Below are positions 10,329 to 35,217 of a stretch of 64,000 nt of DNA, piece by piece. The stretch spans positions 18,049-82,048 of the forward strand of contig JAZKJC010000008.1 in NCBI GenBank assembly GCA_040384565.1, given 5' to 3'. The notes below the pieces were generated by a model. The model saw nothing but the letters and a program-made list of their open reading frames with translations, was not told where the DNA came from and did not search any database. Numbering within the stretch: position 1 is the stretch's first letter; every line of letters begins with the position of its first letter. This DNA comes from Patescibacteria group bacterium (lineage in GTDB: Bacteria; Patescibacteriota; Saccharimonadia; Saccharimonadales; JAZKJC01). Position numbers and translations under genes: made by a program.

Positions 10329-10330
10329 TA

Positions 10331-10603
10331 TTACTCGTTTCCGATAACTCTACGTGATATTGCTGCCGGCTCGTTGGTTTGGGGATCTAAGATTGGAGGC
10401 TGTTGGGCAAGTTCAGGATCACTGTCAATTACGCTTGCTAGACACTCCTCATAAAAGGCCAGTGCCTCGTCGGGAGTAAGCCCGCCAACTCTGCAAGCTT
10501 CCTCAGTTACTCTGAGCAAATCATTAGCAACTTGGTCTGCTCTCGTTTCTACATGCCTATAATATTCTTCAATTCTTGCACCTCGATCCATAACCCTCCG
10601 CAA
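10331..10603 (-). CDS. hypothetical protein (90 aa)
   Basis: ORF only. Confidence 0.3.
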   Translation of the reverse strand: MRRVMDRGARIEEYYRHVETRADQVANDLLRVTEEACRVGGLTPDEALAFYEECLASVIDSDPELAQQPPILDPQTNEPAAISRRVIGNE

Positions 10604-10762
10604 TAAGCTTAACTCTTATATTATACAGGTTTTGGCGTTACAAAAAATAATTATATACTAAGCCACCGTCATTTTTTTGACCCCGATCGACAGGCATATT
10701 ACTAAGTGCAAGTAGAGTAGGTCTACACTTTGTGAAACGTCTTTGAGATCAAAATACTGGCG

Positions 10763-19055: not shown

Positions 19056-19165
19056 GCACCAGTATCGTATTACGAAATACGTAGTAGTATAACTGTTAGC
19101 GTCATTATCATGTCCTGACCGTCATACCAACTACGTTATACGTTCTACGCAATCATCCCGGGTAG

Positions 19166-19240
19166 CTCAATGGTGGAGCAAGAAGCTGTTAACTTCGAGG
19201 TTGTCGGTTCGAGTCCGACCCCGGGAGCCAGACCAAGCAC
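19166..19240 (+). tRNA. tRNA-Asn (anticodon GUU) with encoded CCA
   Basis: Cloverleaf folded by hand: acceptor TCCCGGG/CCCGGGA, D-arm GCTC-AATGGTG-GAGC, anticodon loop CTGTTAA, T-arm GTCGG-TTCGAGT-CCGAC, discriminator G then CCA. Confidence 0.85.
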
Positions 19241-19253
19241 TAAGAGAGGTAGA

Positions 19254-19296
19254 CCGGGTTCCTAGACCGGTCTTTCTCTATTTTTGAGCATTACCT
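19254..19296 (+). terminator. rho-independent terminator after tRNA-Asn
   Basis: Stem gagaggtagaccgg/ccggtctttctct, followed by attttt. Confidence 0.55.
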
Positions 19297-19317
19297 ATGA
19301 AATTTTCGCCCCCGTTA

Positions 19318-19350
19318 CGGGTTCGAATCCAGCCCCTGTCTTGTCCGAAA
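19318..19350 (+). other. degenerate tRNA T-arm/acceptor-like fragment (GGTTCGAATCCAGCCCC), a possible relic att site
   Basis: It matches the fragment at 22461-22485 in 15 of 17 positions (GGTTCGAAyCCAGyCC). It has no CCA and no 5' half. Confidence 0.4.
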
Positions 19351-19491
19351 ATGTTGGAACGGTCAAATGACACGAACGATTCCAATTTTTCTCTGCAACA
19401 CGGTTCCGAAACCGACCAGCCCACTATATGGCAACCAGGCAGATTGAAAGCCGACCGGGTTCCATGACCAAGCCCTCGAGTGATGACTTAT

Positions 19492-21189
19492 CTACACGAT
19501 CACACCGTGACATTTCTTATACTTCTTACCACTGCCACATGGACAAGGCTCATTGCGGCCAATCTTCTCCCCAGTTTGCAATGAAAAAACCGTTAATTTA
19601 TCATTAGTGCGCTCCTGCGTGCTAAAATCTAGTCCAAGCGATAGTACGAAATCTTCATAAGCAAAAAGCTCGGGATATTTGTTCTCTTGTCTGAGTAAAT
19701 CTTCGGTAGACTTCTGACCGGCTTTCCGCCGTTCCTTTGCTTCACTCAGTCGTTTTGACTCAAGTAAACGATCAATTTGTTCCGCCTCTTTCTGCGTCTG
19801 TTTATAACCACGTTTATCGCCGAGGTTCTCGTAAGCAGCCAACAGGTAATCCTCGAGGCACTGCAGCGGCCATTCGTCTGGCTCAAGTTCGCCAGCAAGC
19901 ACCCTGACCCAGACTGTATGACTTACGCCTATTGTCTTGTGGTCTTCGCCAGTCTCTAGCAAACCACGGGCAATCCCCATGGCCATCATTTGACTGTGCT
20001 CTGGATAACGCTTGAGTAACTGCTCTAATTGATACTGCCAATTCTTACCTGTAGTAATTCGCCTAATCACATCAGCTACCGCAAAGTCCGGGAAAAAGCC
20101 GCTGGCCAGACCGGCTTCAGCAATAGCGAACATGTGTTCCACAACACCCGATTGCCGAAGCACCTCATACGCTAACAAATCATGAACAGTAGCCCGTAAA
20201 CTTGCAAAATCATGAGGATACTTTTGATATGTTTCGAAGACTGCTTTGTCGGTTTGCTCAAAAGCCCATGCCAAGCGTTCAATAGTGACAAAGTAGAGGT
20301 TGCTGTCGGGCTCAACATCCTCCAGGTCAAAAACGATTGACATAAAAGTCTCCATGAGCGGCCGAGTAATCAAGCGATCCCACAGCACCTCGCAGGCTGC
20401 ATAGAGGTAGTCATCATCGACTTCCCGAGCGTCAGACGCCCGCGCTTTAACTTTGTCAACGATCGTCTCAATAGCATCTCTAACCGGACGACCGATGGCT
20501 TTGAATTCTATCTCATCAAGCTCAATACCCATTTTGGCCAACTTTTTTAGAATCTGCTCGGTCGATGTGGTCTCTAGGTCTTTAGACAATACAAAATCAA
20601 AACGCGGGTTGTCTGCAAGCTTGCGCAGGCTATATTGCAAAAAGTCACCGCGTAGAGCCTGTTCTTGTAGCTTTTGCCCGAAACTATATTGCGGGTTCAA
20701 ATTCAGTGCAATGTTTAGCGCCGCTTCCCCTAACAGTAAACTGCCGTTAAGATACGCTGTTGAGGCGACATTAGCAAAGAGACGATACGGTTCGGCAATG
20801 ATGATACGTTCATCCAGAGCTGTTTGCAACGTCTTAAGCCAGAGCGTCTCGCTTTCCTCCGTGTTGCCACGGCGTAGTGCAGCATCGGCGGACAGCGACA
20901 TTTCAACGATGAACGTTGGATCTATGGTATGTAGCGTAACCCCGCTCAAAGTTGAACGATCTGCATTCAGTGGCTTTGCAGCCTGAAGGATATTGTCAAC
21001 CTCTGATGGTTCCATATTGAGACTGGCTGCCATGCTAATCAATACTGACAGCCAAAGTGGCGCCTTGTCGGCCCCAGCCGTATCCATTTTGCGCCATCGT
21101 TCCAAATCCTCAGCCGTCAATATGCTTTCAAGCTGTGTACCTCGAATTGCGTCGTTGATTGCTTTGGTATTCATTAACGAATCCTCCAT
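19492..21189 (-). CDS. SEC-C motif domain protein (about 565 aa from the internal Met)
   Basis: The C-terminal [17 protein letters not shown] is a SEC-C metal-binding motif. A start at 21189 avoids the overlap with the upstream gene. Confidence 0.55.
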
Positions 21190-21190
21190 G

Positions 21191-21832
21191 TTATTCCAGA
21201 TATAGCTTAGAGAATTTTTTGCCATCAATAACTTGCAGCACCGATCCATCACCCAACGGGGTACCATCTGGCATTGTAGAGAACGTATCTATACACCACA
21301 CTCCATTTTTAACCTCATAACAAGTATCGGTAGGGGTGTGTCCAAATACTTGAGACGTATCCTTGTATATAATACTGCCCCCAGGTCTTGCCCAAATAGG
21401 GCTCATGTCATTCCATAGGCCATCCACATCTTTTAGGCCAGACCACTCATTTGTTATGCCAGCGTGAGAATAAGTAACGCCATCAATTTCGATAATAACA
21501 GGCAGGCCAGCAAGCCACGCTTTCACATTTTTATTTTCTAGGGCATCGATTAAAATTTGTGTCATAGGATTGTAGCCAGATTGCAATGAAGGCGTATTGT
21601 TGACATATATGTAGTCGTGATTACCTGTAACAAGCTCAACCTTGCCTTGGTTTTTAGTCTGCAGATCTTTTAGAGTATTCCAAGTGTTTAGGGTATCTTG
21701 CGGACTAGCGCTAAAGTCATCCGCATAATCACCACAGAAAATAACCTTATCATAAACGTTGTTGAGTTTAGCGACTTTCTCAATAATCCATATTTTTGTG
21801 TGAATGTCGCCCATGGCGAGTACTTTTGCCAT
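21191..21832 (-). CDS. calcineurin-like metallophosphoesterase (lambda-PPase-like)
   Basis: Motifs GDIH, GDYADD and GNHD are present. Confidence 0.75.
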
Positions 21833-21853
21833 AATTTACGTGCAGGCGACTAG

Positions 21854-22201
21854 TTACGCCCGTCCGTGCAATTTTCGTATACGTGCCCGTACCGATTCTT
21901 GATACTGTGTAGGGTTTTGCATTTGGTGATAGGCACGAACAGCGATAACCTCAAAACTATCATCATCTACAAGGTAAACAACTGCGACTTTGTAATTTTT
22001 CATCTGCATCTTACGTACATCTGGGTCATCTTTGAACACGACGTTAGCTCGTGGCAAGTTTTCCAAGTTCGCTACGGTTTCCATAGCTTCATCGAAAAAA
22101 TTCGCTGCCGATTCAGCGTCCACTAGTTCTTCATAAAATGCCATGAGTTCAGCGATATCGTTCTCGGCATCTTCTGTAAGATTGACGCTATACTTTTGCA
22201 C
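21854..22201 (-). CDS. type II toxin, RelE/ParE family
   Basis: 115 aa. The C-terminal YKVAVVYLVDDDSFEVIAVRAYHQ block fits RelE/ParE. It overlaps a small upstream ORF. Confidence 0.65.
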   Translation of the reverse strand: MQKYSVNLTEDAENDIAELMAFYEELVDAESAANFFDEAMETVANLENLPRANVVFKDDPDVRKMQMKNYKVAVVYLVDDDSFEVIAVRAYHQMQNPTQYQESVRARIRKLHGRA

Positions 22202-22376
22202 CAGCCAGCTCCTGATATTTTTTTAGAATATCTTTCTTGGCCTGGCTGAGCGGTATACGGTTTTTAGGATTTTTAGCATGTTTAATGCGTCGCTCCAGCT
22301 CAAGTAGAAACTCTGGGCTGCTTTCATCTACATTAATGACTTTGCTACTATTCATACTTTTATTATACCTTATCAC
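22188..22376 (-). CDS. putative antitoxin partner of the ParE-like toxin
   Basis: 62-aa ORF overlapping the toxin start by 14 nt, the classic toxin-antitoxin arrangement. Confidence 0.5.
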   Translation of the reverse strand: MIRYNKSMNSSKVINVDESSPEFLLELERRIKHAKNPKNRIPLSQAKKDILKKYQELAGAKV

Positions 22377-22452
22377 ACGTAAAAATACGCGTAAAAACTT
22401 GATAAATAACGGATGTGAGCTATCATTAAGCGAGTCTAAAATCGGATGGTAA

Positions 22453-23967
22453 TTAAGTTTGGTTCGAACCCAGTCCGGGGAGCCAATTTCCAGATTTAGC
22501 CATGTCTGTTAGAGCATCAAACGGCTCTAACAGATTAAAAACTAGCTTTTCACCGTCTAGTTTGGCGTTAGGAAGTACTAAATTGAGTAGGTATCGTTTT
22601 TGTTCCAGTTTCGTACTTTCTGCTGCTAACAGTTCTGCGCCTCGGCTTGCGACATCTAAAATGTATGACGCACCGATAACAAAAGCCTTGTCGCCGTCTG
22701 CGTGGTCAGCAATTTGCTGTGCTATGTCTTTTTGCTTTGTTTCAAGGTCTTTAACCATAGATTCAAACAGTTGGTGCCTATGAGCAAACTGTTTTCTGTC
22801 ACTAAACAAGTCTTTAATATCTATGTCTATCTGGTCATGTTCTCTTTGCAGACGTTTTTTATTGGTTAAGTAATGTTTCTGCTCTGAATCGTGGTTACGC
22901 TCAATTTCAGCAACAATTTCGGGCATTACTTGCTCTGGTACTTGAAAGCCAGTAAAGACTTCCATGACTTGGGCTATTAGTTTGTCTTCGTTAACAATCT
23001 TTGCACCATGCTTACCGCCGTACTCTGTACAGCGCATTAAGTTGTACTTATCTTTTTTGCGGTCTGTCGTAATGGTATAGCCACAAGTGTTGCACTTTAA
23101 GTTCTTAAACAGAAACTGCCTACCATACTTGGTACGGTGCAAGGCTCGTTGCTCTTTGACTTCTTGGCACCTGTCCCAAATCCAGGGCTGCACAATAGCA
23201 CCGTAGTGGTGGACGTAGATGTTGCCGTCATAGCGCATTTTGCCGTAATAGAATGGGTTCTTAAGTATTTCTTCCCACTGACCACGAGTAATAGCCTTTT
23301 GGAGCTTGGTATTGCTTACCAGACCGTCATTCTTTAATTCTTTAGCAATCATAGCGAATGACATGCCAGTTGAGCGCAGCTCAAAGCCTTTGGCAATGTG
23401 ACGGCTGCGTACTGGGTCAGGTTTGATATGCCTAATATCATTACCGTTGGCGTCCTTGCCCTTAACATAGTTGATGTAGCCAATAGGGGCTTTGCCTGGC
23501 CATTCACCGTCTGCCAGCTTTTGGTCAAAACGGCGTTTAACGTTGTCCCGTATTGCGCTGGAATAGTAGCCAGCAAGTGCTACGCCAATATCTAGGCGAA
23601 ACAAATCGGCTGCTGGTGAGTTTTTATGAATGTACAGATTATCTGACGGGAAGTGCATTTCAATGCGTCCTTGCCGAAATAGTGCAGTCAAAACTTGCTT
23701 TTCTTCTGACGAGGAGTCACGGCTAAAGCGGTCAATTTTATCAAAAACTACGATTGACAGGTCTGTTGCTTCCATTAAAGGCTGCATAACGCTTTCTCTG
23801 AACTTTTTGCGTGTATCTTTGAACGCTGTTTCGTCAAACTCTACGTAAATGTAATCCTTATCTTCAATCCATTTTTGTTCTTTCGCGTAGTCTTTTAGTT
23901 TTTTTGTTTGGGCGGGAAGTGCTTCCCGTTGTACTGGGTCTGATACCCTTGCTATTAAATAATTCAT
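22453..23967 (-). CDS. large serine recombinase (resolvase/invertase-type catalytic domain, recombinase domain and zinc ribbon)
   Basis: The N-terminus YLIARVSDPVQ carries the catalytic Ser. A recombinase-domain block (PIGYINY...) and CNTCGY...C zinc-ribbon cysteines are also present. Confidence 0.85.
   Translation of the reverse strand: MNYLIARVSDPVQREALPAQTKKLKDYAKEQKWIEDKDYIYVEFDETAFKDTRKKFRESVMQPLMEATDLSIVVFDKIDRFSRDSSSEEKQVLTALFRQGRIEMHFPSDNLYIHKNSPAADLFRLDIGVALAGYYSSAIRDNVKRRFDQKLADGEWPGKAPIGYINYVKGKDANGNDIRHIKPDPVRSRHIAKGFELRSTGMSFAMIAKELKNDGLVSNTKLQKAITRGQWEEILKNPFYYGKMRYDGNIYVHHYGAIVQPWIWDRCQEVKEQRALHRTKYGRQFLFKNLKCNTCGYTITTDRKKDKYNLMRCTEYGGKHGAKIVNEDKLIAQVMEVFTGFQVPEQVMPEIVAEIERNHDSEQKHYLTNKKRLQREHDQIDIDIKDLFSDRKQFAHRHQLFESMVKDLETKQKDIAQQIADHADGDKAFVIGASYILDVASRGAELLAAESTKLEQKRYLLNLVLPNAKLDGEKLVFNLLEPFDALTDMAKSGNWLPGLGSNQT
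22456..22485 (+). other. tRNA 3'-end-like fragment (T-loop, T-stem, acceptor, discriminator, CCA) overlapping the recombinase stop; putative att site
   Basis: The sequence ggttcgaacccagtccggggagcca has no matching 5' tRNA half upstream. On the opposite strand the same nucleotides encode the last 11 codons of the recombinase (GNWLPGLGSNQT). Confidence 0.5.
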
Positions 23968-24047
23968 TTATTGTATCCTTACTATTATTTTATGATTTAC
24001 CTCTGATAATTACTACCAGTAAGGGGGAGATAAACTCCCCCATGTGC

Positions 24048-24500
24048 CTACGCTTCCAACAGTCCAATGAGCTTCTGCTGTTCGTCTGCCGATATAAGTG
24101 GCTCATGTAAGCCCTTATACAGTTCTTCACCGCTACGTATCAAGCCGATATAGTACGGATTGGTAACGATTCGTTTTATGCTAGCCTTACTGCGAATATC
24201 TAATGATTCACCGCTTAAAAGGATAGATAACCGTAACCTAAACTCCTCGGTAGAAATCTTACCGTTGGCTGCTTCCTGCATTACTACACGCATAGCCATA
24301 CCTCTACGGGTTATGCGGAACAATCCGCTAGTTTCTGTAGTTGAGTAGCCAAAAGGTGGACGCCGTAGTGCATATCCAGCTTTGGCTAGATTCTGCATTG
24401 CTGTCTTTGTATTTTCACACGCTGTTAGGCGTTGATATTCAGCTATCACTGACATAAAATCTTTCATTATCTTTTCTGTTGCTTCTTCTTGCTTATTCAT
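24048..24500 (-). pseudogene. truncated serine-recombinase-like ORF (C-terminal and recombinase-domain portion only)
   Basis: 150 aa. The block AGYALRRPPFGYSTTETSGLFRITRRG resembles the recombinase domain of large serine recombinases. No catalytic N-domain is encoded upstream. Confidence 0.4.
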
Positions 24501-24594
24501 TATTTGAACTCCATTTAATTTAAGTTATTGTTGCGCAAGGGCTATGCTGTGTTGCTGTTAGCCTAACCGCTTGCGTCTATGTAAGTGTGATATG

Positions 24595-24780
24595 TTATTT
24601 CTCTGGCTCTACCTCGCTTTGCGTCTTAGTGTTCCGCCAGTCCTGGTGCTGTTTATCCAGCACAATTAGGAACTCTATGTAGCGCACAAGGTTAAACTTA
24701 ATTTCCTTGTATTGCTGTTCGGTTAGCTGCTTGTCATAGAACTTTTCAAACAGCGCCTTAGCGTCGGGTTGCTTACTCAT
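24595..24780 (-). CDS. hypothetical small protein
   Basis: 61-aa ORF overlapping the next gene's start. Confidence 0.3.
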   Translation of the reverse strand: MSKQPDAKALFEKFYDKQLTEQQYKEIKFNLVRYIEFLIVLDKQHQDWRNTKTQSEVEPEK

Positions 24781-25765
24781 TTTCAGCCCCTGTTTCTAAG
24801 CTGTAGTGTATGTTTCTACCTACGCCTTGTGTTTCTTTTACCAAGCCTTCTTCAAGTAGTTCTTCTAGTAGCTCACGCAATTTATGTTCGTTGATTTTTA
24901 CGCCTTGCTGCTTTAAGCTCGCAAGCAACTCTTTTTGAATTGGTTGCTGGTTTTCGCTTAGCTGCGTAAGAATTGTGTCTTTTAGCATTTGACGCTTCTT
25001 ATCTGATATATTCACTTCGCCGTCGTATATGAGCTGAAACGAATCATCATCCGCGCTTATTTCTACTTCAAACTTACCTAGCTCTGGGGCATAGCGGTTT
25101 TTAGTCTGATGTACTACTAAGCTGTCTTTGCGCCGACTTATAGCTACATGGCTGTCTATTGACGCTGGAATGTCTGACGAGCCACGCATTGCGTTAAGCC
25201 CACTATCGGCATTTACGCCAGGCTTACGATTGTGGTGTGTCAGTATCAGCGTAATGTCCTGCGCAGTAAACTTCCTAAGTTGCTTAAACACTGCTGCCAT
25301 TTCGCCAGAACTGTTTTCGTCACTGGCATGTATGCGCACCAGGGAATCTATGATGATTACCTTGATGTCCCGTATTGCACACTCAATGAGTGTTTCGGCG
25401 ACTGTTTCGTTGCTTAAAACGAAACCAGGCTGTGGACTAAAGTAAATTGGTAAATCCGCTAGTGCGCCGAGCATAAACAGACGTTCTTGGACGAGCCGTT
25501 GGCTGTTTTCTTCGTCTATTATCAGCACTCCACTTTGCTTTGTTGCAAACTCACCGAATAGTGGTTCGCCCCTAGCTACGCTTATTGCTGTGTGTAGCGT
25601 TATCCATGTTTTGCATGACGCTGGTGCGCCCGAAAATATCGTTATAGCTGCGTCTGGCACAAGCTTGTCCACGAGCCATTTCTGGGGCGGAAAGTTTTTG
25701 TGCATTAGTTCTTGTATTGTTAGTAATTGGTCCATATTGGAAACCTTTCGTAAGAAGCTATCCAA
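24773..25765 (-). CDS. RecA-family (AAA_25/RepA-like) ATPase with a C-terminal winged-helix domain; mobile-element replication or mobilisation protein
   Basis: Walker A GAPASCKTW and Walker B VIIIDSL. The C-terminus LRELLEELLEEGLV resembles a wHTH. Confidence 0.6.
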   Translation of the reverse strand: MDSFLRKVSNMDQLLTIQELMHKNFPPQKWLVDKLVPDAAITIFSGAPASCKTWITLHTAISVARGEPLFGEFATKQSGVLIIDEENSQRLVQERLFMLGALADLPIYFSPQPGFVLSNETVAETLIECAIRDIKVIIIDSLVRIHASDENSSGEMAAVFKQLRKFTAQDITLILTHHNRKPGVNADSGLNAMRGSSDIPASIDSHVAISRRKDSLVVHQTKNRYAPELGKFEVEISADDDSFQLIYDGEVNISDKKRQMLKDTILTQLSENQQPIQKELLASLKQQGVKINEHKLRELLEELLEEGLVKETQGVGRNIHYSLETGAENE

Positions 25766-25911
25766 CGGAACAGGTTGTTATTGGTGTTGGACGGCTTCTT
25801 TTCCCGTTCCACAATCATCATCTCAACTAATAAAGGAGCTGTGATTCAGCCCCTAAACAACACGGTTTAGTTACGGTTTTCTAATCTGCTATAAACGTAT
25901 GTTTAACGATT

Positions 25912-26802
25912 TTATTCGGTGTTTTTTCGGTAGCTTTTTATAAGCTCAACGTAGACTTTTTGCTGCTGTGGCGCAAGTTCTTTTACTGGCGTAAAGCGCA
26001 CGGTCTTCTTGCTCGTACCTGCAAAGAATATGTCTTTAAGCTCTTTATTAAATCCTTGTAATCTAATTACTTCGGACAGGTCTTTATAACTTTGGCAGCC
26101 GTCAATAAGTTGAATGTCGCCAATGCCAATGTTCTGGTTAGTATGAGTTTGTACGTAGTGCATTAAATTATAAGGACCAGAATCTACACGCAAGTTTTTA
26201 ATAGGAAATAATTCTTTGCCTTTAATACCAATGAGTATTCGCGTGCCGTCTATCTTTACTTCGGCATACATTATTTGCGCAAGCGGGGCGGTATCAGTAC
26301 GGCGCACTGTCGCTCCAAATGCTTGGCAAGTTTCGTCTGTCGGTTTTATTGCTTCAATGATAATAAGACCTTTAATTGCTACAGCCAACAGTGTTTCTAC
26401 AAACTTTTTACTATTACTGGACTGATTACCCTTAATGTCCCTAGCCGTATTTGAAGTACCTAGCTTATTAAGCAATCGTGTTTCGTGCTGCGCATACAAT
26501 GTAATGGAATTGCCAGTGGGTGCAAATATACGGTCAGACTGGAAATACTCAATATAGCTATTAACCATATCCTTAAACCACCTGGTATCGGCAGTCTGTA
26601 CGGCACTGTCTATGCTTTCAATCCTGGCTTCATTTACCAGCTTCTCTAGCACTGCTGCACAGTAGTCTTTATTGTTCGGGTAACCAATAAAGTCGGTCAG
26701 TAAGCCTTGCAGCTTTTCTTGGTCAGCTTGAACATAGCCACTAAGCAAGGCGTAGATATACAGCAAACGGCTGTCCCAAAACTGCGTTATAGGCATTTTC
26801 AT
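25912..26802 (-). CDS. hypothetical protein (296 aa) of the mobile-element module
   Basis: ORF only. Confidence 0.4.
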   Translation of the reverse strand: MKMPITQFWDSRLLYIYALLSGYVQADQEKLQGLLTDFIGYPNNKDYCAAVLEKLVNEARIESIDSAVQTADTRWFKDMVNSYIEYFQSDRIFAPTGNSITLYAQHETRLLNKLGTSNTARDIKGNQSSNSKKFVETLLAVAIKGLIIIEAIKPTDETCQAFGATVRRTDTAPLAQIMYAEVKIDGTRILIGIKGKELFPIKNLRVDSGPYNLMHYVQTHTNQNIGIGDIQLIDGCQSYKDLSEVIRLQGFNKELKDIFFAGTSKKTVRFTPVKELAPQQQKVYVELIKSYRKNTE

Positions 26803-27249
26803 GTCTGCAATTATTGTAAATCATGGGCTAGATTGTGCCGAATCGGTAAGTTTTATGCTTAACCAGTAAAAATGCCATTCTTCACTGATATTGCTCTGTT
26901 CTTGGCAATTTTAGTTATAAATATAAACACGTCTATTTCGGGGATTTGTCTGCTTTAGTGCCAGCAGCAGCATGTAGGTTTCTAATCATTGCGTAAACAG
27001 CGTGTTCTTTTGGGGGCTTTATGTGCGACATGTCTGGTATTCGCCGTTTCATTATCATTTGCAGTTTTAGTTTGCTTTGCTCGTCCATATACTAATTATA
27101 GGACAGTTCAACATAGCCTGTAGAGGACATTTACAGCCGATTTAAGCTGATTTATTGCCTTTAACGACTAACTCTACCAAAAGCCCCGCAAACTCCGCAA
27201 TTATAAGAGTAATTGTTGTATAGTTATATCAGACTGCAAAGGAGTTAAC

Positions 27250-28230
27250 ATGAAAGTAAAAGTATCCGAATTAAAAAACAATGTCTTAGCTGGTGTTTCT
27301 AAACTAGGCTACGAAGACCAAGACGCACAAACTATTGCAGATGTACTCCTTTACGCCCAGCTTCGTGGCAATAATCAAGGTATAACTAAGATTGCTACTG
27401 GTGGTGTGCCTAAGGCTAGCGATGTAAAGCCACTGGAAGTTGTAAAAGAAAACAAGTGTGGTGCTTTGCTATCGGGTGGACATTCAATGGTGGCTACTGC
27501 AAAAGCCGCACAAATGGCAGCAGATTTAGCAGCGCAGCACGGCGTTGGAGTGGTAGCTTCTAACCATACCTTTACTTCATCTGGCGCAATAGGCTATTTT
27601 TCACGACAGATTGCTCAACAAGGTTGTATTGGCTTTGTCTGTGTAGGAAATGGCTCATTTGCTTTTGTTGCCCCAAGTGGTTCAGCAGAGGCTAAACTCG
27701 GTACGAATCCATTCTCTTATGCGTTTCCGTACAATGGTGGCGAAGTGGTCTTTGATAATGCAACTGCTGCTATGGCATTTTTTGGAATAGTTGAAGCCAA
27801 GCTAAAAGGCGAAGCCCTGCCAGAAGGTATTGGGTTTGATAAAAATGGCAGTCCTAGCACAGACGCAGCCGAAGTATTGGACGGCTCAATTTCAACCTTT
27901 GCAGAGCATAAGGGCTTCGGACTTTCTCTATTTGTGCAGTTGCTCGGCAGTGCCTTTGCGCTAGCTGGTATGCCAGGTGCGCATGAAGATGACGGCGCAG
28001 GTACATTCGTAATGGCGATTGACCCTGGATTGCTGGCTGGTAAAGATGAGTATATGAAACGAGCTACAGAACTTGTTAACAGCGTTAAGGCTGCTAAACC
28101 ATTACCAAATAAAAGCGTTTTATTACCTGGTGAACATGGTGACACACTTGCAAAACAAGCAGAAGAAAGTGGCGAAATTGAAATTGCTGACGCTATTTGG
28201 AGCGAACTTACAGCATTTGTGAGTAATTAG
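27250..28230 (+). CDS. Ldh_2 family (malate/L-lactate dehydrogenase family 2) oxidoreductase, the family that includes ketimine (Pip2C/Pyr2C) reductases
   Basis: 326 aa with family-characteristic blocks (HSMVAT, ASNHTF, GTNPFSYAFP, AEHKGFGLS). Confidence 0.75.
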   Translation: MKVKVSELKNNVLAGVSKLGYEDQDAQTIADVLLYAQLRGNNQGITKIATGGVPKASDVKPLEVVKENKCGALLSGGHSMVATAKAAQMAADLAAQHGVGVVASNHTFTSSGAIGYFSRQIAQQGCIGFVCVGNGSFAFVAPSGSAEAKLGTNPFSYAFPYNGGEVVFDNATAAMAFFGIVEAKLKGEALPEGIGFDKNGSPSTDAAEVLDGSISTFAEHKGFGLSLFVQLLGSAFALAGMPGAHEDDGAGTFVMAIDPGLLAGKDEYMKRATELVNSVKAAKPLPNKSVLLPGEHGDTLAKQAEESGEIEIADAIWSELTAFVSN

Positions 28231-28237
28231 GTAGCGT

Positions 28238-29206
28238 ATGAACGATAAACGTATTCTTATACTTGGTGCTGGTGTATCTGGGCTATCTACGGGTATTTTA
28301 CTGCTCAAAGACGGTTACGGCGTTGATATTTGGGCTAAGGATTTACCGCCCAATACTACGTCAAACATAGCTGCTGCTGTTTGGTATCCATACCTTTGCA
28401 ATCCCAAAGATAAGGCAGCCAAGTGGAGCGGTTTTACACTCAAGTATCTACAGCAAAATACGCTTAACGACCCTGATAGCGGTTGCATAGAAAGAACCAT
28501 TACCGAGGTGTTTGACAAAAAGGTAGATGAACCCTGGTGGCAGGAAGCTGTTACTGAATACAGACGACCTGCTCAAGGTGAACTTCCAGCAGGATATGTG
28601 GACGGATACCAAACCAAAGCAATTTTAATGGACACTACCTTTTATATGGACTGGTTACTCAAGCAGTACAAAGAATTAGGTGGCGCCCTTGAGCAGAAGA
28701 CCATAGAGGATATACAAGAAACATTTAATCAGTACGATATTGTCGTTAACTGCACAGGTTTAGGCTCAAAAGAGTTATTTAATGACGATAGAGTATTTCC
28801 CGTTAGAGGACAGGTTGTTTACGTTAAGCCGAATGGCTTTGAGGAAGTAGTGGCAGATGATGACGGACCTAATAATCTTGCCGTTATTATTCCTCGTATT
28901 AACGACATTGTATTAGGTGGAACTGCACAACCGAATAATTGGAGCTTGGAAGTAGACCCTAAAGATACAGAAGACATTTTAAGGAAAGCAAAATTGTTAT
29001 CACCCGCATTTAATGACGTAGAGGTTATCGGACAAAAAGTGGGTTTGCGTCCAGCAAGAGACGAAGTTCGTCTAGAAATAGAAAGGTTTGGTAATAAAGC
29101 TGTCATACATAACTATGGACACGGCGGTGCTGGCTATACACTGTCCTGGGGTTGCGCAAATGATGTTAAAGAGTTGGTAAAGGGACTCGGCTCCCTACAA
29201 GCGTAA
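28238..29206 (+). CDS. D-amino-acid-oxidase-family FAD-dependent oxidoreductase
   Basis: N-terminal Rossmann ILILGAGVSGLSTG, and the C-terminal HNYGHGGAGYTLSWGCA block typical of DAAO. Confidence 0.75.
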   Translation: MNDKRILILGAGVSGLSTGILLLKDGYGVDIWAKDLPPNTTSNIAAAVWYPYLCNPKDKAAKWSGFTLKYLQQNTLNDPDSGCIERTITEVFDKKVDEPWWQEAVTEYRRPAQGELPAGYVDGYQTKAILMDTTFYMDWLLKQYKELGGALEQKTIEDIQETFNQYDIVVNCTGLGSKELFNDDRVFPVRGQVVYVKPNGFEEVVADDDGPNNLAVIIPRINDIVLGGTAQPNNWSLEVDPKDTEDILRKAKLLSPAFNDVEVIGQKVGLRPARDEVRLEIERFGNKAVIHNYGHGGAGYTLSWGCANDVKELVKGLGSLQA

Positions 29207-29391
29207 ACTGTTTTGCATTTTACAAAATATGTGCTATATTATAAAACTATGAAAGCAATTTCAATATCAGCCGTATCATTTTTTACAGTCTCTACTCACG
29301 GAGGCATTGCTAACTTTACCCAATAAATAAAGCAAATCAACAAAACTTAAGCCTCCAACCAGGAGGCTTTTTTAATTCATAAGGAAAGATT

Positions 29392-30402
29392 ATGTCAAAA
29401 CTTAAACCAAGAGAAATTGTAATGGACGCTGTAGGTGAAAGCACTACGGCAGATGTCCTATACCCACAAATAATAGTCAACCACGAAGCAGTACCGTTAG
29501 AAAGTGAGGAACAATTAAAGGCTTGGGCTGTAGGAGCTGCTACGGTCAATGCACTGATTAAGTCTAGCGACAGACGTGCTATAAACGACCAGTTATGGCG
29601 TTACTGTGCTGCACCTGACGACTACCCTTTGGAATTGCGTACTATTTACGGTGGTTCAGAAAATCCACATTCAGTTGACGTATTAGACTGGGCTTTGCCT
29701 TCATTAGCTATCGCAGCAGCAATGCAAAGATACGGAATGAGTCCTAGTGTGTCTGTACTTAGTGCAGATGAAGCTTCAATAAGACTTAACGGTCTTCAAG
29801 CAGAAGCCACCACGCAGCACACCAACGATACCCTACAGTTAGTTGAGCGAGTTGGTAGGCGTTACTATCCTAGCGTAGACCTAGAAGTTGGACGTTTAAC
29901 GTGGGACGAATTAACTGCTGAACCATATTCAGACGATGTTGATTTACTACGTAGTCAACAGCTCGGAGCTTCGGTAGTAAAAATAGTAAGCGGTCTTGAG
30001 GAAATGGTACAAAAGCGTGGCGGTGATATAGATAGTGTCTCGGCATACCTCGGTTTACATAACACTGCATACGCTATTTACACAGGCAAGCCCACCATAA
30101 AGATAGCAGGAGCGTCAGAAGAACGCTTCACTGTAATTCAACGTGAGCTAGCCGCAGCTCACTCTGAAATAACTGGCACTAAAGACATAGACAATAAATC
30201 CTGCTTAGTGGCTGGGGTTATACATGATAGCCCAAGTACGGCTCCGTACTATGTACAGGCAGGAATAAAAGTACCAAGTGTACTAGAAAGAATAAACGGA
30301 ATGGACTACCCGCTAGATATTCTGGCTAAGGAATATGGTCTTGGTCGTGTTGCAAGCAGAATAGCCGCTCTAAATATGAACCCACAAGAGGGCTTAGTAT
30401 GA
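29392..30402 (+). CDS. hypothetical protein (336 aa) in the aaRS-like cluster
   Basis: No recognised motif. The stop overlaps the next start by 4 nt. Confidence 0.5.
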   Translation: MSKLKPREIVMDAVGESTTADVLYPQIIVNHEAVPLESEEQLKAWAVGAATVNALIKSSDRRAINDQLWRYCAAPDDYPLELRTIYGGSENPHSVDVLDWALPSLAIAAAMQRYGMSPSVSVLSADEASIRLNGLQAEATTQHTNDTLQLVERVGRRYYPSVDLEVGRLTWDELTAEPYSDDVDLLRSQQLGASVVKIVSGLEEMVQKRGGDIDSVSAYLGLHNTAYAIYTGKPTIKIAGASEERFTVIQRELAAAHSEITGTKDIDNKSCLVAGVIHDSPSTAPYYVQAGIKVPSVLERINGMDYPLDILAKEYGLGRVASRIAALNMNPQEGLV

Positions 30403-31343
30403 AAATGTATATTGAACCACTAAAGAAAGATGTTCTTGACCGCTACCTTGACGTTCAAGACTTAACCCAAGCTGCTGAACCACATGCAGTTAAGTTGTTG
30501 TACCAAAAAATAGAAGACTATATGCGAGCAGCTCACCCAGACAGCAAAGTTATTGTATATCGGCAAAATCCAGTAGTACCTGTTGAAGATAACTACGATA
30601 AATTGCTAATCGGTAAAGATAACATTAGTCGTTCATCTACTTACACGCACTATGCTGACGACACCCACATTCTACGAACCCATACGTCTGCACATATGCC
30701 CCAAATACTTGAGGACTTAGCTAGACGAGATGACTGGAATGATGTTGTTGTTCTATTACCAGGTTTGGCGTACAGACGAGATGTTACAGACAAAACGCAC
30801 TTAGGTGTACTGCACCAGCTAGATATGTGGCGTGTCATTAAGAATAGTCCTGACAAGCCAGCTATTGTTAAAGACGACCTACTAGATGTAGTTAATGGAG
30901 TGGCAAGTGTTGCTGCACCAGGCTGGAAATTACGAATTGTAGATAACCCACACCCGTATACAAAAGGTGGCATTGAAGTTAATGCTGTAAAAGACGGGCG
31001 AGACATTGAAATACTTGAGTGCGGTTTAACGAGCGACCAATTATTGCAAGACTCTGGCTTAGACCCAAATAAGTATTCTGGTTGGGCGTTGGGTATGGGC
31101 TTAGACCGCTTAGTAATGACACTCAAGGCTATTCCAGATATTCGTTACTTGCGTTCTACTAACCCTGACATTGCTAAACAAATGGTTGATTTGACTCCCT
31201 ACAATGAAGTGTCACACCAGCCGAGTATCAAGCGTGACATGTCCTACAGTGTGCCCAAAGGCTATGTTGAGGAAGATATTAACGAGGACATTCGTAATGC
31301 ACTTGGCAATGATATGAATATATTGGAAAGCGGGAAGTCTTGA
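30399..31343 (+). CDS. mitochondrial-type monomeric phenylalanyl-tRNA-synthetase-like class II catalytic core
   Basis: Motif 2 ILRTHTSAHMPQ and AYRRDVTDKTHLGVLHQLD (compare the mito-PheRS block VYRRDQIDSQHYPIFHQLE). Motif 3 is GWALGMGLDRLVM. The C-terminus DMSYSVPKG matches the start of an FDX-ACB domain. Confidence 0.7.
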   Translation: MKMYIEPLKKDVLDRYLDVQDLTQAAEPHAVKLLYQKIEDYMRAAHPDSKVIVYRQNPVVPVEDNYDKLLIGKDNISRSSTYTHYADDTHILRTHTSAHMPQILEDLARRDDWNDVVVLLPGLAYRRDVTDKTHLGVLHQLDMWRVIKNSPDKPAIVKDDLLDVVNGVASVAAPGWKLRIVDNPHPYTKGGIEVNAVKDGRDIEILECGLTSDQLLQDSGLDPNKYSGWALGMGLDRLVMTLKAIPDIRYLRSTNPDIAKQMVDLTPYNEVSHQPSIKRDMSYSVPKGYVEEDINEDIRNALGNDMNILESGKS

Positions 31344-31531
31344 GTGAAACACTAGCGGAGCAGCTTCCCGACAAAATAAAAGAACGGCTTGGCTGTAAGC
31401 CTAATCAGAAAAATATACTAGTGCGGATTACTCTACGACATCTGGAAAAGACGCTTACAAAAAAGCAAGCCAACGACATCTATGACCATATTTACGGCAA
31501 AATAAATTACGGTACAGGCGGATACCTGTAG
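31340..31531 (+). CDS. FDX-ACB (ferredoxin-fold anticodon-binding) domain fragment continuing the PheRS-like gene in a shifted frame
   Basis: ILVRITLRHLEKTLTKKQANDIYDHI matches the FDX-ACB signature (...RITYRHMERTLSQREV...). It starts at a TTG overlapping the upstream TGA. Confidence 0.55.
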   Translation: MSETLAEQLPDKIKERLGCKPNQKNILVRITLRHLEKTLTKKQANDIYDHIYGKINYGTGGYL

Positions 31532-31543
31532 AAAGGCTATAAT

Positions 31544-32590
31544 ATGAATATGAAATACAGTTTTTATGACGACTACACCGAAGGCGCTCACCCAGAAATC
31601 CTAAAATACATAAGTGAGCATAATTTAGACCAACAACTAACATACGGGCGAGATGAGTATAGTAAGTTGGCTGCTGAAAGAGTAAACAAAGCATTTGGCA
31701 CAAATAATGCAGACGTACATTTCTTGCCCACTGGCACTGTCTGTAATGTCATAGGATTAAAGTCTATGCTTCGTGCTATTGAAGGGGTTATTGCGCCAGC
31801 AAGTGGTCATATAAACACCCATGAAACAGGTGCTTTAGAAGCTCACGGACATAAGATTATTTGGGTTGATACGCCTGACGGCAAGCTCACACCAGCCTTA
31901 ATAGACAAGGCTCTAGCTCTCTACGAAGACGAGCATACAGTAATTCCAAAAGTTGTATATCTGACCCAGGTAACTGAACTCGGCACTGTTTACACTAAAG
32001 AAGAACTCAAAACTGTAATTGACTACTCCAAATCAAAGGGTCTTTACACATTCCTAGACGGCGCACGTTTAGCTATGGCAGTCGCTAGCAAAACAGCTAA
32101 TATGACAATGGAAGATGTCGGCAATCTTGGGCTTGATATGTTCTACATCGGTGGCACTAAAAACGGTGGTATGTACGGCGAAGCGTTGGTTATACAAAAC
32201 GATATATTCAAGAAAGACTTCCGCCATTTTATAAAGCAGCGTGGCGGTATGATGGCTAAAGGTCGTTTTATTGGTCTACAGTTTGCTCGGTTCTTTGACG
32301 AAGATAACTTATGGCTTAACCTGGCTAACCATGCTAATGAAATGGCACAGTTGTTATTTAACGGTCTACAGGAACTAGGAATTGAGTTTGACCTTACGGC
32401 AGACGCGAACCAGGTTTTTCCAATCTTAGACAACAAAGTCTATGAGCAGTTGAGCCAAGAGTATGGCTTTTACCCCTGGAATAAAGTTGGTAATGATAAA
32501 ACTAAAGTACGTTTTGTTTGTTCATGGGCTACGCCTAAAGACCAAGTTGAAGCGTTAATTGCTGACGCAAGAAAGATTACCCAACAATGA
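31544..32590 (+). CDS. threonine aldolase family PLP-dependent enzyme (beta-eliminating lyase superfamily)
   Basis: 348 aa. HFLPTGTVCN aligns with FLPTGTQAN of low-specificity threonine aldolase. The N-terminal YSFYDDYTEGAHPEIL block and a GGTKNG Lys region also fit. Confidence 0.7.
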   Translation: MNMKYSFYDDYTEGAHPEILKYISEHNLDQQLTYGRDEYSKLAAERVNKAFGTNNADVHFLPTGTVCNVIGLKSMLRAIEGVIAPASGHINTHETGALEAHGHKIIWVDTPDGKLTPALIDKALALYEDEHTVIPKVVYLTQVTELGTVYTKEELKTVIDYSKSKGLYTFLDGARLAMAVASKTANMTMEDVGNLGLDMFYIGGTKNGGMYGEALVIQNDIFKKDFRHFIKQRGGMMAKGRFIGLQFARFFDEDNLWLNLANHANEMAQLLFNGLQELGIEFDLTADANQVFPILDNKVYEQLSQEYGFYPWNKVGNDKTKVRFVCSWATPKDQVEALIADARKITQQ

Positions 32591-33120
32591 AGTTTGGCAA
32601 ATTAGACTTCGCAGATGTTAGCCAGCATTCTAACTTAGTAGCTGCGCCGACAGATGAAGCAATTAAACAGCATGACCTTTCAGATGTTCTAGTTGCAGAA
32701 ATTGACGCTGAAGTAGCGGATACAGCAGCTTTCTGTGAAGCTTACGATATTGGAATGGACATATCAGCCAATTGCGTTGTCGTTGAAGCTAAAAGAGCCG
32801 ATAAAACGTGGTATGCAGCTTGTTTAATCTTAGCTACCAATCGGGCTGATATAAACGGCGTTGTAAGACGACACTTAGACGCTCGTAAAATATCTTTTGC
32901 GCCTATGGATACAGCAACCTCGCTGACAAAAATGGAGTACGGCGGTATCACCCCAATCGGTTTACCAGAGGACTGGCAGTTAATTGTTGACGAAGCTATT
33001 ATCCAAAAAGAGCGAGTAATAATCGGTAGCGGTATTCGTGGCTCAAAATTACTTGTAGAAAGCAGCATTTTTTCTAAACTGCCTAATGTTGCTATCAAGG
33101 ATATTGCAAAAACTAGTTAG
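32587..33120 (+). CDS. YbaK/ProX-family aminoacyl-tRNA trans-editing deacylase-like protein
   Basis: 177 aa. The C-terminal block GGITPIGLPEDWQLIVDEAIIQKERVIIGSG matches the YbaK/ProX deacylase domain pattern. Confidence 0.65.
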   Translation: MKFGKLDFADVSQHSNLVAAPTDEAIKQHDLSDVLVAEIDAEVADTAAFCEAYDIGMDISANCVVVEAKRADKTWYAACLILATNRADINGVVRRHLDARKISFAPMDTATSLTKMEYGGITPIGLPEDWQLIVDEAIIQKERVIIGSGIRGSKLLVESSIFSKLPNVAIKDIAKTS

Positions 33121-33164
33121 AACACAGTGTGGCTACCTCTGTAGTTTAAGGGTAGAATTAGAGT

Positions 33165-34943
33165 ATGTACGGGAAGAACATACTGATTATTCCAACGCAC
33201 GAAGATGTGTTTGGCGAACAGGCTAAGACCGAAGCCCAGATTATTGACGGACTGAAAGAGTTTAGCAGCCTGACTATATTGCACCTATGTACAAAGTTAA
33301 TGCTGTTTCTAAACAGTAGTGGGGCGAAAACTCCCGCAAAACAAACGGAACTTGCGCAAGGCTTACTCAATCAAGAAACGAGAGAACGATTACAGGCATT
33401 TATAGAAAATAGTGACGAAAAAGACCCGAACATACTTATCTTTCACCACTGTCCCGTAATGATGATGGTAAAACTCAATCTTGAGCATAATAATACTGAT
33501 GGTCTTGAGATTACTACCGAAGAAACTCGCACGAAGTTTGCTAGTCTTCTAATTTCTTTATGTGACATCTGGCTTTATAACGACAGGCTTAAAGGGGGTG
33601 GCAGCAAGCAGCAACGCAATTTCTTTTTAGAAGGCTTTCGGGCGTACCAAGCACGACAGTTCCTGCAAGAGAATGACGGCGAACCAATGATAAACCTACT
33701 CACAAGAGGTCGCTACATAGTTGATAAAGTGCGAGCAGATACTCGTCTTACTTTTGATGAGTCCTTCAAAACTGCGACTGGAATGGAACTAACTCTGTAT
33801 ATGGACATTCTTTTAATGCTGACTGCTCAATGGACAATCAACGTTGATACGACCAAGCTTGATGACATTTCGGTTAGAAGCACAGAGGAGTACTTTAAGC
33901 ACACTACACTTAGCGCAGAAGACATAAACAAGTTCTTAGATATTGTCGGCTTCAAGATGGACGATTACACCACACTTAATCAAAGATACCTTGAAATGAT
34001 AGGTATGCCTGATGACGACCACTTAGTAAACTTTATAACTTTTATGAAGAAGCCGATACTTCGCTACGACAACAAGTTTTTGTGCCTAAGCCCTAACTTC
34101 CTGCTTCTACAGCTTACCGAAGGACCATATAATATCGTTCGTGAAGCTATTAAGGGTACAAAGCAGGAGCAATTGTTACCTGTAGTTTGGGGCGATACTT
34201 ATGAGCAATATGCACTTGAAAGACTAGCAGCTACGTTTCCCAAATCAACTCATCAGAAACTTAAAGACAAGAATAACTCCGAAACAATAGACGCCTTGAT
34301 TGACCTAGATGATGTTGTTCTGCTAACAGAAATTAAATACCCGCATTGGTCATTCAGGGCAAGAATTACTGGTAAGCGTGAAGATATGCACGGCTATATG
34401 GAAAGAATTGCTCGCTATAAGCCAAAGAAAGAAAAGCTGGGACAGCCAAAGGTTGATAAGAAAAAAGGGCTTGGTCAAATCAAGTACTTCGTTGAAAAAG
34501 TAGCAGACGACACTGCTGTAGCCCCTGTAGATTTAACTAAAAAGCTATTAGTTCCGTTGCTAATTGTTGGCGAGGAATACCCAGTAGACCCTATAAACCG
34601 CCAGCTACTTGAGGGTTATGCTGCTAGCGAAGGCTGCTTGATAACAAAAGATAGTAGAGTGTTGCCATTCGTACTTATTACCAGCGAGGAACTTGAGCTT
34701 ATTGAATCGCTGGTAGAGGGTATAGGGCTTGAGGAAACAAAGAAATTGTTTATGACTTACGTTATGCGCCTACACCCAGACCACCGAGAACCCGAATATC
34801 ATAAACGAGCTACATCATTTAAGAATGAAGTCTTTAACCGAAAGATAAAAGTACCTAATAATATGTTTATGAAAACTCAATCCAAAGCAGCATTTGAACC
34901 AGTCAGAGCATATTTTAAGAATAAATCAGACCTGCCTTTATAA
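33165..34943 (+). CDS. hypothetical protein (592 aa)
   Basis: Long ORF with no recognised motif. Confidence 0.5.
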   Translation: MYGKNILIIPTHEDVFGEQAKTEAQIIDGLKEFSSLTILHLCTKLMLFLNSSGAKTPAKQTELAQGLLNQETRERLQAFIENSDEKDPNILIFHHCPVMMMVKLNLEHNNTDGLEITTEETRTKFASLLISLCDIWLYNDRLKGGGSKQQRNFFLEGFRAYQARQFLQENDGEPMINLLTRGRYIVDKVRADTRLTFDESFKTATGMELTLYMDILLMLTAQWTINVDTTKLDDISVRSTEEYFKHTTLSAEDINKFLDIVGFKMDDYTTLNQRYLEMIGMPDDDHLVNFITFMKKPILRYDNKFLCLSPNFLLLQLTEGPYNIVREAIKGTKQEQLLPVVWGDTYEQYALERLAATFPKSTHQKLKDKNNSETIDALIDLDDVVLLTEIKYPHWSFRARITGKREDMHGYMERIARYKPKKEKLGQPKVDKKKGLGQIKYFVEKVADDTAVAPVDLTKKLLVPLLIVGEEYPVDPINRQLLEGYAASEGCLITKDSRVLPFVLITSEELELIESLVEGIGLEETKKLFMTYVMRLHPDHREPEYHKRATSFKNEVFNRKIKVPNNMFMKTQSKAAFEPVRAYFKNKSDLPL

Positions 34944-35217
34944 ACCGAGAAACAGAATATATCTATATATATTAGTTTTTGCGCTTTCAAACAGTATCCC
35001 ATATCGGTTCTAAGCCAAATGCGTCAGACTCAAAGAAACGCCGAGCATTATCTACTTCACGGGCTAGGCGCACGATAGCGTCATAATACTTAGTGCGGAA
35101 CATGTACGGTAGAGGGAGCCAAATAAGAACACCTTAAAACGCCTCGCTCGTACGGTTAGACTTGACTAATTCAGTATAAGCACTAAGCTTAAGCTAATAG
35201 TTAGTGAGTTTAACTGG

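Follow-up and report, generated by a model that had tools for sequence, protein, structure and literature searches.

A probable integrative element of 12.6 kb in a Saccharibacteria-type genome, its large serine recombinase gene split at a tRNA-Asn 3' end relic

The window considered here, i.e. the whole 64-kb stretch of contig JAZKJC010000008.1 that was analysed, contains a large serine recombinase (LSR) gene and a probable integrative element (positions 22486-35121), located to the right of a tRNA-Asn gene and two tRNA-like fragments. ARAGORN was run on the window and called only one tRNA, an intact tRNA-Asn(GTT) on the + strand (19156..19230), which is an unoccupied potential attB; the initial annotation had recognized this gene but placed it 10 nt too high, at 19166-19240. 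A conserved trailer, GACCAAGCAC, lies directly 3' of the tRNA, and the same motif is kept at the tRNA-Asn and att junctions of L004, L086 and L091 (L and P numbers designate loci and proteins, respectively). It is followed, in the host flank, by a hairpin with a U-run, AUUUUU (about 19242..19288, + strand), an arrangement kept in L004 and L086. The hairpin is indeed present where a terminator had been proposed (RNA fold dG -19.4), but its z score is only -1.8, and its role as a terminator is plausible while statistically not strong. Further right is fragment 1, a degenerate T-arm relic (GGTTCGAATCCAGCCCC), which exists as described earlier but at 19320..19336 (+ strand) and not at 19330-19345. 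Homologous copies occupy the same place in L004, L086 and L091; fragment 1 is an older tRNA-like relic and marks no element boundary. Fragment 2 (22459..22485, + strand) has a T-loop, T-stem, acceptor strand, discriminator and CCA. The clean 3' end, GGTTCGAACCCAGTCCGGGGAGCCA, is exactly at 22461-22485 as first reported, and the tRNA likeness reaches about 2 nt further left (27 nt in all). Its T-loop spacing is that of real tRNAs, but it lacks a 5' half and ARAGORN calls no tRNA there. Between the two fragments, 14 of 17 positions agree rather than 15, and fragment 2 is not the relic of a different tRNA, as had been supposed, but is derived from tRNA-Asn, its first 16 nt being the same as in the 3' ends of tRNA-Asn from L040 and L055. 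No further copies of the 25-mer GGTTCGAACCCAGTCCGGGGAGCCA at ≤3 mismatches were found in the window, and none in 100 shuffles; a 16-mer pattern has a chance expectation of 0.07, but this pattern was built from the two copies themselves.

On the opposite strand, fragment 2 encodes the end of a 504-aa open reading frame (ORF; 22453..23967, - strand) with matches to Resolvase, Recombinase and, weakly, Zn_ribbon_recom, in agreement with its initial assignment as the LSR of an integrative element. Codons 1-494 (23967-22486) are encoded by the element, while codons 495-504 are read off the antisense strand of the tRNA relic as W-L-P-G-L-G-S-N-Q-T-stop, which amounts to 10 codons and a stop instead of the 11 codons counted previously. 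The displaced native 3' end of the same gene, 44 codons and a stop (WLPLPYMFRTKYYDAIVRLAREVDNARRFFESDAFGLEPIWDTV), is found at 34987..35121 (- strand), in frame from TGG, 12.6 kb from the LSR body and in the same orientation, where it forms the P arm of attR. This junction was located via the 7-mer GGAGCCA (35115-35121, in an intergenic gap) together with translation. The tail at 35121 aligns to the C-terminal tail of P0060 from the invariant W of that protein (E 9e-7), to the tail of P0048 (WLPLADMLRTKYY), and to a tail piece in L004 (E 6e-12). Set side by side, attL and attR share a 9-bp core, GGGAGCCAA, present as a left copy at 22478..22486 and a right copy at 35114..35122 (both + strand), with the host flank resuming at 35122-35123. 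This core is the sole sequence common to attL, of which fragment 2 is the B arm, and attR, and the reconstructed attP and attB differ in both arms. The window has exactly one LSR body and one tail, both flush with the same core, and in a reconstruction, circularising the 12,636 bp between the cores restores an ORF of 538 aa. The insertion polymorphism that had been suggested as a check is also seen, as relatives carry the same tRNA-fragment site unoccupied. Most probably, window 22486-35121 is an integrative element of 12.6 kb, in a genome of Saccharibacteria type, whose LSR has its attP inside its own coding sequence. With attP inside the recombinase ORF, integration replaces the native tail, and the C-terminus becomes tRNA-encoded. 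Of the two extents envisaged at first, the larger element running rightwards from the recombinase is the one borne out, with its right end fixed at 35114-35122. The direct repeats of the tRNA 3' fragment that were to be sought further right take the form of the 9-bp core only: no longer copy of the tRNA 3' end (25-mer at ≤3 mismatches, 11-mer, or T-loop-plus-CCA pattern) is found to the right of the LSR in the window. The GC profile, proposed as another check, is without contrast between element and flanks.

Both junctions are crossed by contigs from Logan (run SRR26324625): L001, which corresponds to window 19174-24165, spans the left one, and L175 spans the right one. Since these are independent contigs, the arrangement is not an assembly artefact of the window. 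A chimera, in which a circular episome would have been stitched into the chromosome at the shared tRNA-like repeat, has hardly any probability left. It could draw on two break points in the sample's Logan contigs, one within tRNA-Asn (19174-19184) and one at 24165-24309 (in a 150-aa ORF), but L001 (attL) and L175 (attR) run through the junctions unbroken, and a shared core of 9 bp is too short to mislead an assembler. The breaks themselves suggest alternative paths, i.e. strain variants or repeats, in the sample.

The insertion target is the conserved 27-nt tRNA-Asn 3' end relic, and not the live tRNA-Asn 3.2 kb away. The live gene is unoccupied, and the corresponding position in L004 carries an attR-type junction. 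The homologue of fragment 2 (TGGCTC..GGACTGGATTCGAACCA..) is found unoccupied upstream of the antitoxin gene in L086-L090 and L091-L093, with host DNA on its other side and no LSR, and the same relic is occupied by other LSRs in L123 and L154. The LSRs closest to that of the window overlap a complete tRNA-Asn (L082, 94% identity; L013, 72%; L002, 62%), whereas for the LSR of the window the overlap is limited to 27 nt of tRNA.

The segment between the two fragments (19492..22376, - strand) codes, according to Pfam, for a SEC-C protein of 591 aa (19492-21267), a metallophosphoesterase (21191-21832), ParE (21854-22201) and an antitoxin (22188-22376), all on the - strand. The other extent envisaged in the initial annotation was a small element of about 3.1 kb made up of these genes, with the two fragments as att sites. 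The fragments are direct repeats (14/17) flanking the segment, and a toxin-antitoxin pair is typical island cargo. The segment probably was an island once, since fragment 2 resembles a displaced tRNA 3' end and the L091 homologue has a hairpin-like flank. Nevertheless, the segment and both fragments belong to a conserved chromosomal synteny. They are kept in place in L004 (17-3003, 87% nucleotide identity), where the homology goes on across fragment 1 and the hairpin as far as the end of tRNA-Asn, and in L086-L095, where antitoxin, ParE and phosphoesterase form a block that lies beside SmpB in L086-L089. For the phosphoesterase, 410 homologues were obtained at E≤1e-20, with identities reaching 90% and several of them on contigs of 100-780 kb; it also accompanies antitoxin-ParE in the P0126 and P0134 contexts, adjoining SmpB in the P0126 loci, and the segment next to SmpB-tRNA-Asn is conserved in many Saccharimonadales. 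Moreover, there is no recombinase inside the segment, and the other part of the recombinase at fragment 2 is located 12.6 kb rightwards and not at fragment 1. As a recent element, the small element is already largely refuted, and we consider it very improbable. Our interpretation is that fragment 2 was the displaced 3' end belonging to an ancient island, now fixed, and that it still offers a tRNA-derived arm and a core. The SEC-C protein is present in the window and L004 and missing from L086-L095, in which the phosphoesterase more directly precedes the tRNA-Asn region. Behind the SEC-C protein, L004 carries an additional insert of 1.4 kb (ORFs of 175 and 88 aa), the flank being itself a variable spot.

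The features of the window LSR recur throughout its family. Searching with the LSR yielded over 1,100 homologues. A set of 80 genome loci was fetched, nearly all from metagenome-assembled genomes of Saccharibacteria or other Patescibacteria, plus 3 from Streptomyces/Kitasatospora, and 79 metagenome loci served as an independent set. The Trp at position 495 is invariant, and most homologues then read ...W-x(3-5)-[D/G/E]-S-N-..., where TGG is the antisense of CCA and GA(T/C)-TCG-AAC that of the T-loop; some continue for 20-27 codons, which corresponds to a whole tRNA. Among the 120 closest protein clusters, 71 have this ending and 26 stop ≤5 codons after W, which makes 97/120 with tRNA-antisense endings, while about 15 have a mutually similar native tail, W-x-x-[LV]-x-x-x-[FL]-R-T... 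A complete tRNA convergent with the LSR is found in 57 of the 80 genome loci, and in 54 of these 57 the last base of the tRNA is the first base of the W codon. The 79 metagenome loci contain 52 complete tRNAs in the same register. The target tRNAs in the genome loci are Asn-GTT, Gly-GCC, Gly-TCC, four Arg isoacceptors, Asp, Trp and His, to which the metagenome loci add Phe, and which residues come after W depends on the acceptor stem of the targeted tRNA (Asn, WL; Gly, WCG; Arg, WY; Asp, WRA; Trp, WQG). In at least 19 other loci, an in-frame native tail is present 6.4-9.9 kb upstream of the tRNA-fused LSR end, with cores of 7-9 nt.

Several observations concern the surroundings of these insertions. 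In L086, tRNA-Asn(GTT) is broken in the anticodon loop (10942-11229) by a sequence matching Rfam Intron_gpI (100 bits), and L023, L024, L028, L033, L042 and L104 have the same break point, just after the LSR end (the intron scan covered L086). A tRNA stopping at the anticodon loop was thus rejected as a truncation, at least in L086, where it reflects a group I intron in tRNA-Asn; because ARAGORN misses such intron-broken genes, the count of tRNA-fused LSRs is an underestimate. Repeats of 16-21 nt of the tRNA end were considered as far junctions in L026, L030 and L052 and rejected, in-frame native tails being located 54-700 bp inside of them; in L050 the tRNA-end repeat is present and no native tail was detected. 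Extra copies of 12-21 nt of the tRNA-Asn 3' end, starting at CCA, are seen 54-700 bp outside the far junctions (L026 2211-2228; L024 2373 and 2545; L030 2853 and 3505; L052 4904; L050 3329). They have homologous spacers in L030 and L052 and resemble the relics of the window. The tRNA-Asn neighbourhood also contains rows of orphan native-tail relics (L091 8709, 10870 and 11430) and small cargo such as toxin-antitoxin pairs and kinases. In addition, there are tandem elements that join the LSR body of one to the tail of another (L046 4237; L004 4646 and 10001-11548; L020): L046 has a decayed LSR end fused to a native tail, and L004 and L020 have two LSRs each. Such body-tail fusions would explain chromosomal LSR copies with native tails, and imply secondary integration beside an occupied site. 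Finally, the homologues in L019, L032 and L035 (Kitasatospora, Streptomyces) are 40-45% identical and have uninterrupted native tails and no adjacent tRNA. Actinomycetes belong to the phylum hosting the epibiotic Saccharibacteria, and these homologues could stem from exchange between host and epibiont or represent the ancestral state of the family.

The LSR matches the Pfam families Resolvase (2.9e-11), Recombinase (8.6e-10) and Zn_ribbon_recom (5e-4, below the curated cut-off). In 40 homologues, the residues A6, R7, V8, S9 and Q13, as well as K77, D79, R80 and R83, are invariant (R-V-S-x-x-x-Q and D-R-x-x-R motifs), as are C292, C295 and C313 of the zinc ribbon. A phmmer search of the LSR against the PDB sequences gave no match. 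The AlphaFold (AF2) model of the native-type homologue P0048 (predicted local distance difference test score, pLDDT, of 84) has long helices (347-450) between the zinc-ribbon elements, and its top Foldseek matches are the SPbeta, PhiC31, Bxb1 and LI integrases (E 8e-15 to 1e-10). The protein therefore has the catalytic motifs, the recombinase domain and zinc ribbon with coiled coil, and the short att sites of the large serine recombinases. In the model, the canonical domains are complete by helix 483-494 and W497, and the native tail is a single helix (500-527, pLDDT 54-69). As the canonical domains end before or at W495/497, integration removes one terminal helix and not a domain.

This bears on whether the element of the window is a dead end, in which the 504-aa protein would be inactive and the element fixed, barring an intact copy from elsewhere, such as a second element in tandem. 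The gene is split in most database copies (97/120 clusters), decayed arrays (L091) and tandem arrangements (L046, L004, L020) occur, and there is an archaeal precedent (PMC7253208). However, only the terminal helix is lost, unlike in the archaeal integrases, which are cut into two stumps, and in the window as in many loci the displaced tail has kept its reading frame intact. We find a dead end conceivable but on balance unlikely; it concerns activity rather than identity and is compatible with the window carrying the 12.6-kb element.

A candidate outer motif was also found in the att arms. Counted from the T of TGG, native (attP-type) arms have GAAC at positions 26-29, and tRNA (attB-type) arms, where it belongs to the T-loop, at positions 21-24; according to a tally from the alignment, the A of GAAC at the third codon position is kept in 27 of 29 Arg codons. 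An attP/attB offset of 5 bp has been described for the zinc-ribbon-domain motif of LI integrase (PMC3783163). The 5-bp offset of GAAC matches it and would fit a centre near the discriminator, which is suggestive only.

Between the left junction and 27091, the element is defined by its homology to L082 (contig JAXOUH010019527.1), which delimits a backbone of LSR, 61-aa ORF, AAA_25 ATPase and 296-aa ORF. An extra of the window relative to this backbone is the stand-alone recombinase-domain ORF of 150 aa (24048..24500, - strand; Pfam Recombinase, phrog_95 positions 202-351), which had been taken for a truncated second recombinase. It is only 21% identical to the element's own LSR, and its homologues stand directly upstream of LSRs in L010 (76%), L043, L005, L009, L012, L016 and L106-L108. 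Since it recurs in this position in about 10 loci, it is a gene and not debris, and its product could compete for, or modulate, att-site binding. The 61-aa ORF (24595..24780, - strand) has homologues directly upstream of LSRs in 16 loci and is a candidate regulator or directionality factor. The next gene (24773..25765, - strand) codes for a RecA-fold ATPase (Pfam AAA_25, 3e-29) which is RepA/helicase-like, carries a C-terminal winged helix, matches PHROG primase/helicase families and is 90% identical in L082; to judge from these matches, it probably replicates the excised circle. The 296-aa ORF (25912..26802, - strand) is 82% identical in L082 and 61% in L048, and neither it nor the 61-aa ORF has a family match in Pfam or PHROG. 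The cargo (27250..34943, + strand) occupies the space between the backbone and the right junction, with, from left to right, Ldh_2 (27250), an FAD oxidoreductase (28238), an ORF with no assigned family (29392), a PheRS-alpha-like protein (30399), a beta-eliminating lyase (31544), a YbaK-type editing domain (32587) and a 592-aa ORF with no assigned family (33165), all on the + strand; the families are from Pfam. This aminoacyl-tRNA synthetase (aaRS)-like cluster is wholly inside the element, which makes it mobile cargo. A homologue of the PheRS-like protein (44%, two paralogues) adjoins a native-tail LSR in L160, and a YbaK homologue (55%) is found in the L115 locus. Among the ORFs of the element, neither Pfam nor PHROG detects the capsid, tail or terminase families that a prophage would have, and there is no tyrosine integrase among the ORFs annotated in 16-51 kb. 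The AAA_25 ATPase matches phage and plasmid primase-helicases, and no relaxase, oriT or initiator was identified in the element. It could be a small integrative plasmid-like element.

A number of points weigh against a 12.6-kb element with attP inside its LSR gene. No excised circle or attP junction was observed for it, and there are no circular contigs among the 79 metagenome loci. No relatives of the LSR occur in viral contigs (IMG/VR). The P arm of the window itself has GCAC and not GAAC, and Arg-Thr codons could explain part of the conservation of this motif. A symmetry scan of 32 reconstructed attP and 20 attB sites revealed no clear dyad axis, for which reason the central dinucleotide was not assigned. 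The tail at 35121 is attributed to the window LSR on account of its orientation, of the core that the two share and of homology, and arrays of orphan tail relics occur elsewhere (L091). The LSR might then merely abut tRNA-derived sequence, as can happen in a compact genome, with the tail at 35121 as an orphan of an older, unrelated insertion and the true boundaries elsewhere or eroded. Tail relics do accumulate near tRNA-Asn in relatives, and the pairing of body and tail is deduced rather than seen as a circle. On the other hand, the window has a single body and a single tail in the same orientation, with the same 9-bp core and an intact frame of 44 codons, and this geometry recurs in at least 19 loci. 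Furthermore, homology to the L082 backbone (94% identical) ends 10 nt into the left core, and homologues of cargo genes are present in other LSR loci. We regard an orphan tail as improbable, and retain the 12.6-kb element bounded by the two cores.

The mechanism that we propose for this element would start from an attP core consisting of the invariant Trp-495 codon and the following bases (TGGCTCC), the reverse complement of the tRNA-Asn discriminator and CCA. The chromosomal site would be a tRNA 3' end, with the acceptor strand and T-arm as one arm and the tRNA trailer as the other. Recombination between attP and the tRNA end would linearise the element within the LSR gene; the 494-codon body would then read antisense into the tRNA and gain 10 foreign codons, and the native 44-codon tail would end up on the opposite side of the element. 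On excision, body and tail would be united again in the 538-aa protein. The predicted attP junction is ...AAATCTGGAAAT|TGGCTCCCTCTACCGTAC..., or in three parts AAATCTGGAAAT-TGGCTCCC-TCTACCGTACATG, and the predicted empty attB junction is ...CCGGGGAGCCA|AATAAGAACACC..., also written CAGTCCGGGGAGCCA-AATAAGAACACC. If body and tail are paired as proposed, a tail like WLPLPYMFRTKYY... flush with TGGCTCCC would be expected at the far L082 junction. To judge from the shortest cores and the lack of identity left of TGG, the crossover may take place within 7 bases, i.e. CCA, the discriminator and 3 more nucleotides. The GTTC of the T-loop might serve as the motif for the zinc-ribbon domain, and the swap of the C-terminus may change the activity or direction of the enzyme. 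In the integrated state, read-through of the tRNA would presumably run antisense to the LSR, and the tandem arrays (L046, L004, L020, L091) may have arisen by attP x attL-type events.

Extended to all homologues, these elements could represent a large undescribed family of bacterial serine integrases using universal features of tRNA 3' ends, with CCA as the invariant Trp and the T-loop GTTC as the outer motif, whose constant spacing would allow moves from one tRNA species to another through changes in only the few post-Trp codons. The swap of the C-terminal helix would act as a switch for directionality or immunity, making these enzymes the serine counterpart of the archaeal suicidal integrases, and the elements would maybe be the main chromosomal mobile elements of Saccharibacteria. 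We put this forward as a tentative picture, to which we give rather less than even credence. An intragenic attP that rewrites the enzyme, once thought to be a peculiarity of archaeal tyrosine recombinases, now appears in bacterial serine integrases, and provides a natural test case for control of integrase direction by exchange of the C-terminus, with no directionality factor of its own. The family also shows in what way a serine integrase can be tied to tRNA 3' ends; its specificity can be read directly from the codons after the invariant Trp, which is attractive for re-targeting integrases. Few genetic tools are available for Patescibacteria, and the family would offer ready-made pairs of integrase and att sites for Saccharibacteria and other members of the group. 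There are also consequences for annotation: most database copies are truncated by integration, their last residues being tRNA antisense and not selected protein sequence, and the aaRS-like gene cluster of the window is to be annotated as mobile cargo.

With respect to known systems, the window LSR shares its domain set and fold with the integrases of PhiC31, Bxb1, A118/LI and SPbeta, along with short att sites that have minimal identity between attP and attB. The candidate outer motif displaced by 5 bp between attP-type and attB-type arms is a further resemblance. In canonical serine integrases, attP is outside the integrase ORF and attB is located in protein-coding genes or intergenic DNA, and to our knowledge there is no account of their protein being altered by integration. 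We found no description in the literature of a serine integrase with an intragenic attP or with the CCA/Trp tRNA register. Integration of serine recombinases at tRNA genes is described as rare, the examples being AICEs (elements of actinomycetes that are both integrative and conjugative) of Mycobacterium in tRNA-Leu and the filamentous phage phiRSM in tRNA-Ser (PMC3218068). Compared by description only, these differ in that neither an intragenic attP nor a tRNA-encoded C-terminus is reported for them, and the phiRSM enzyme is described as resolvase-like. Classical tRNA islands (Islander/TIGER type), which use a tyrosine integrase, duplicate a tRNA segment of 15-50 nt and thereby restore the gene. 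The window element resembles them in its use of a tRNA 3' end and in the relics and arrays at a tRNA hot spot, and fragment 2 itself resembles the displaced 3' end of such an island. However, it shares only 9 bp at its junctions, with no direct repeats of ≥15 nt, it leaves the tRNA sequence unreplaced, and it has a serine-family recombinase. A closer parallel is offered by the Myxococcus phage Mx8 (IntP/IntX; Tojo et al. 1996; Magrini et al. 1999), in which attP reportedly lies in the 3' end of int, and integration into tRNA-Asp is said to replace the C-terminus of the integrase rather than destroy the enzyme. It is nevertheless a tyrosine recombinase known from a single phage, whereas the family of the window LSR is large and has many tRNA targets.

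The archaeal SSV-type (type I, or 'suicidal') integrases of SSV1, pTN3 and pT26-2 have attP in the ORF, target tRNA genes and are split upon integration, and suicidal tyrosine integrases are described as 'so far restricted to archaea' (PMC7253208). The window LSR has in common with them an intragenic attP, a tRNA target, pieces of the gene at both ends of the element and an att site translated into protein, as well as a target specificity that varies across the family and tandem or hybrid arrangements. The SSV-type enzymes are archaeal tyrosine recombinases which leave two inactive stumps and carry a long segment identical to the tRNA, while in the window a bacterial serine recombinase loses a C-terminal helix of about 44 aa at a core of 7-9 bp at the CCA end. 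The split gene with its intragenic attP is common to both, but the tyrosine fold and the archaeal host are not: the window LSR works like the suicidal or Mx8-type integrases, and is a member of the LSR family instead.

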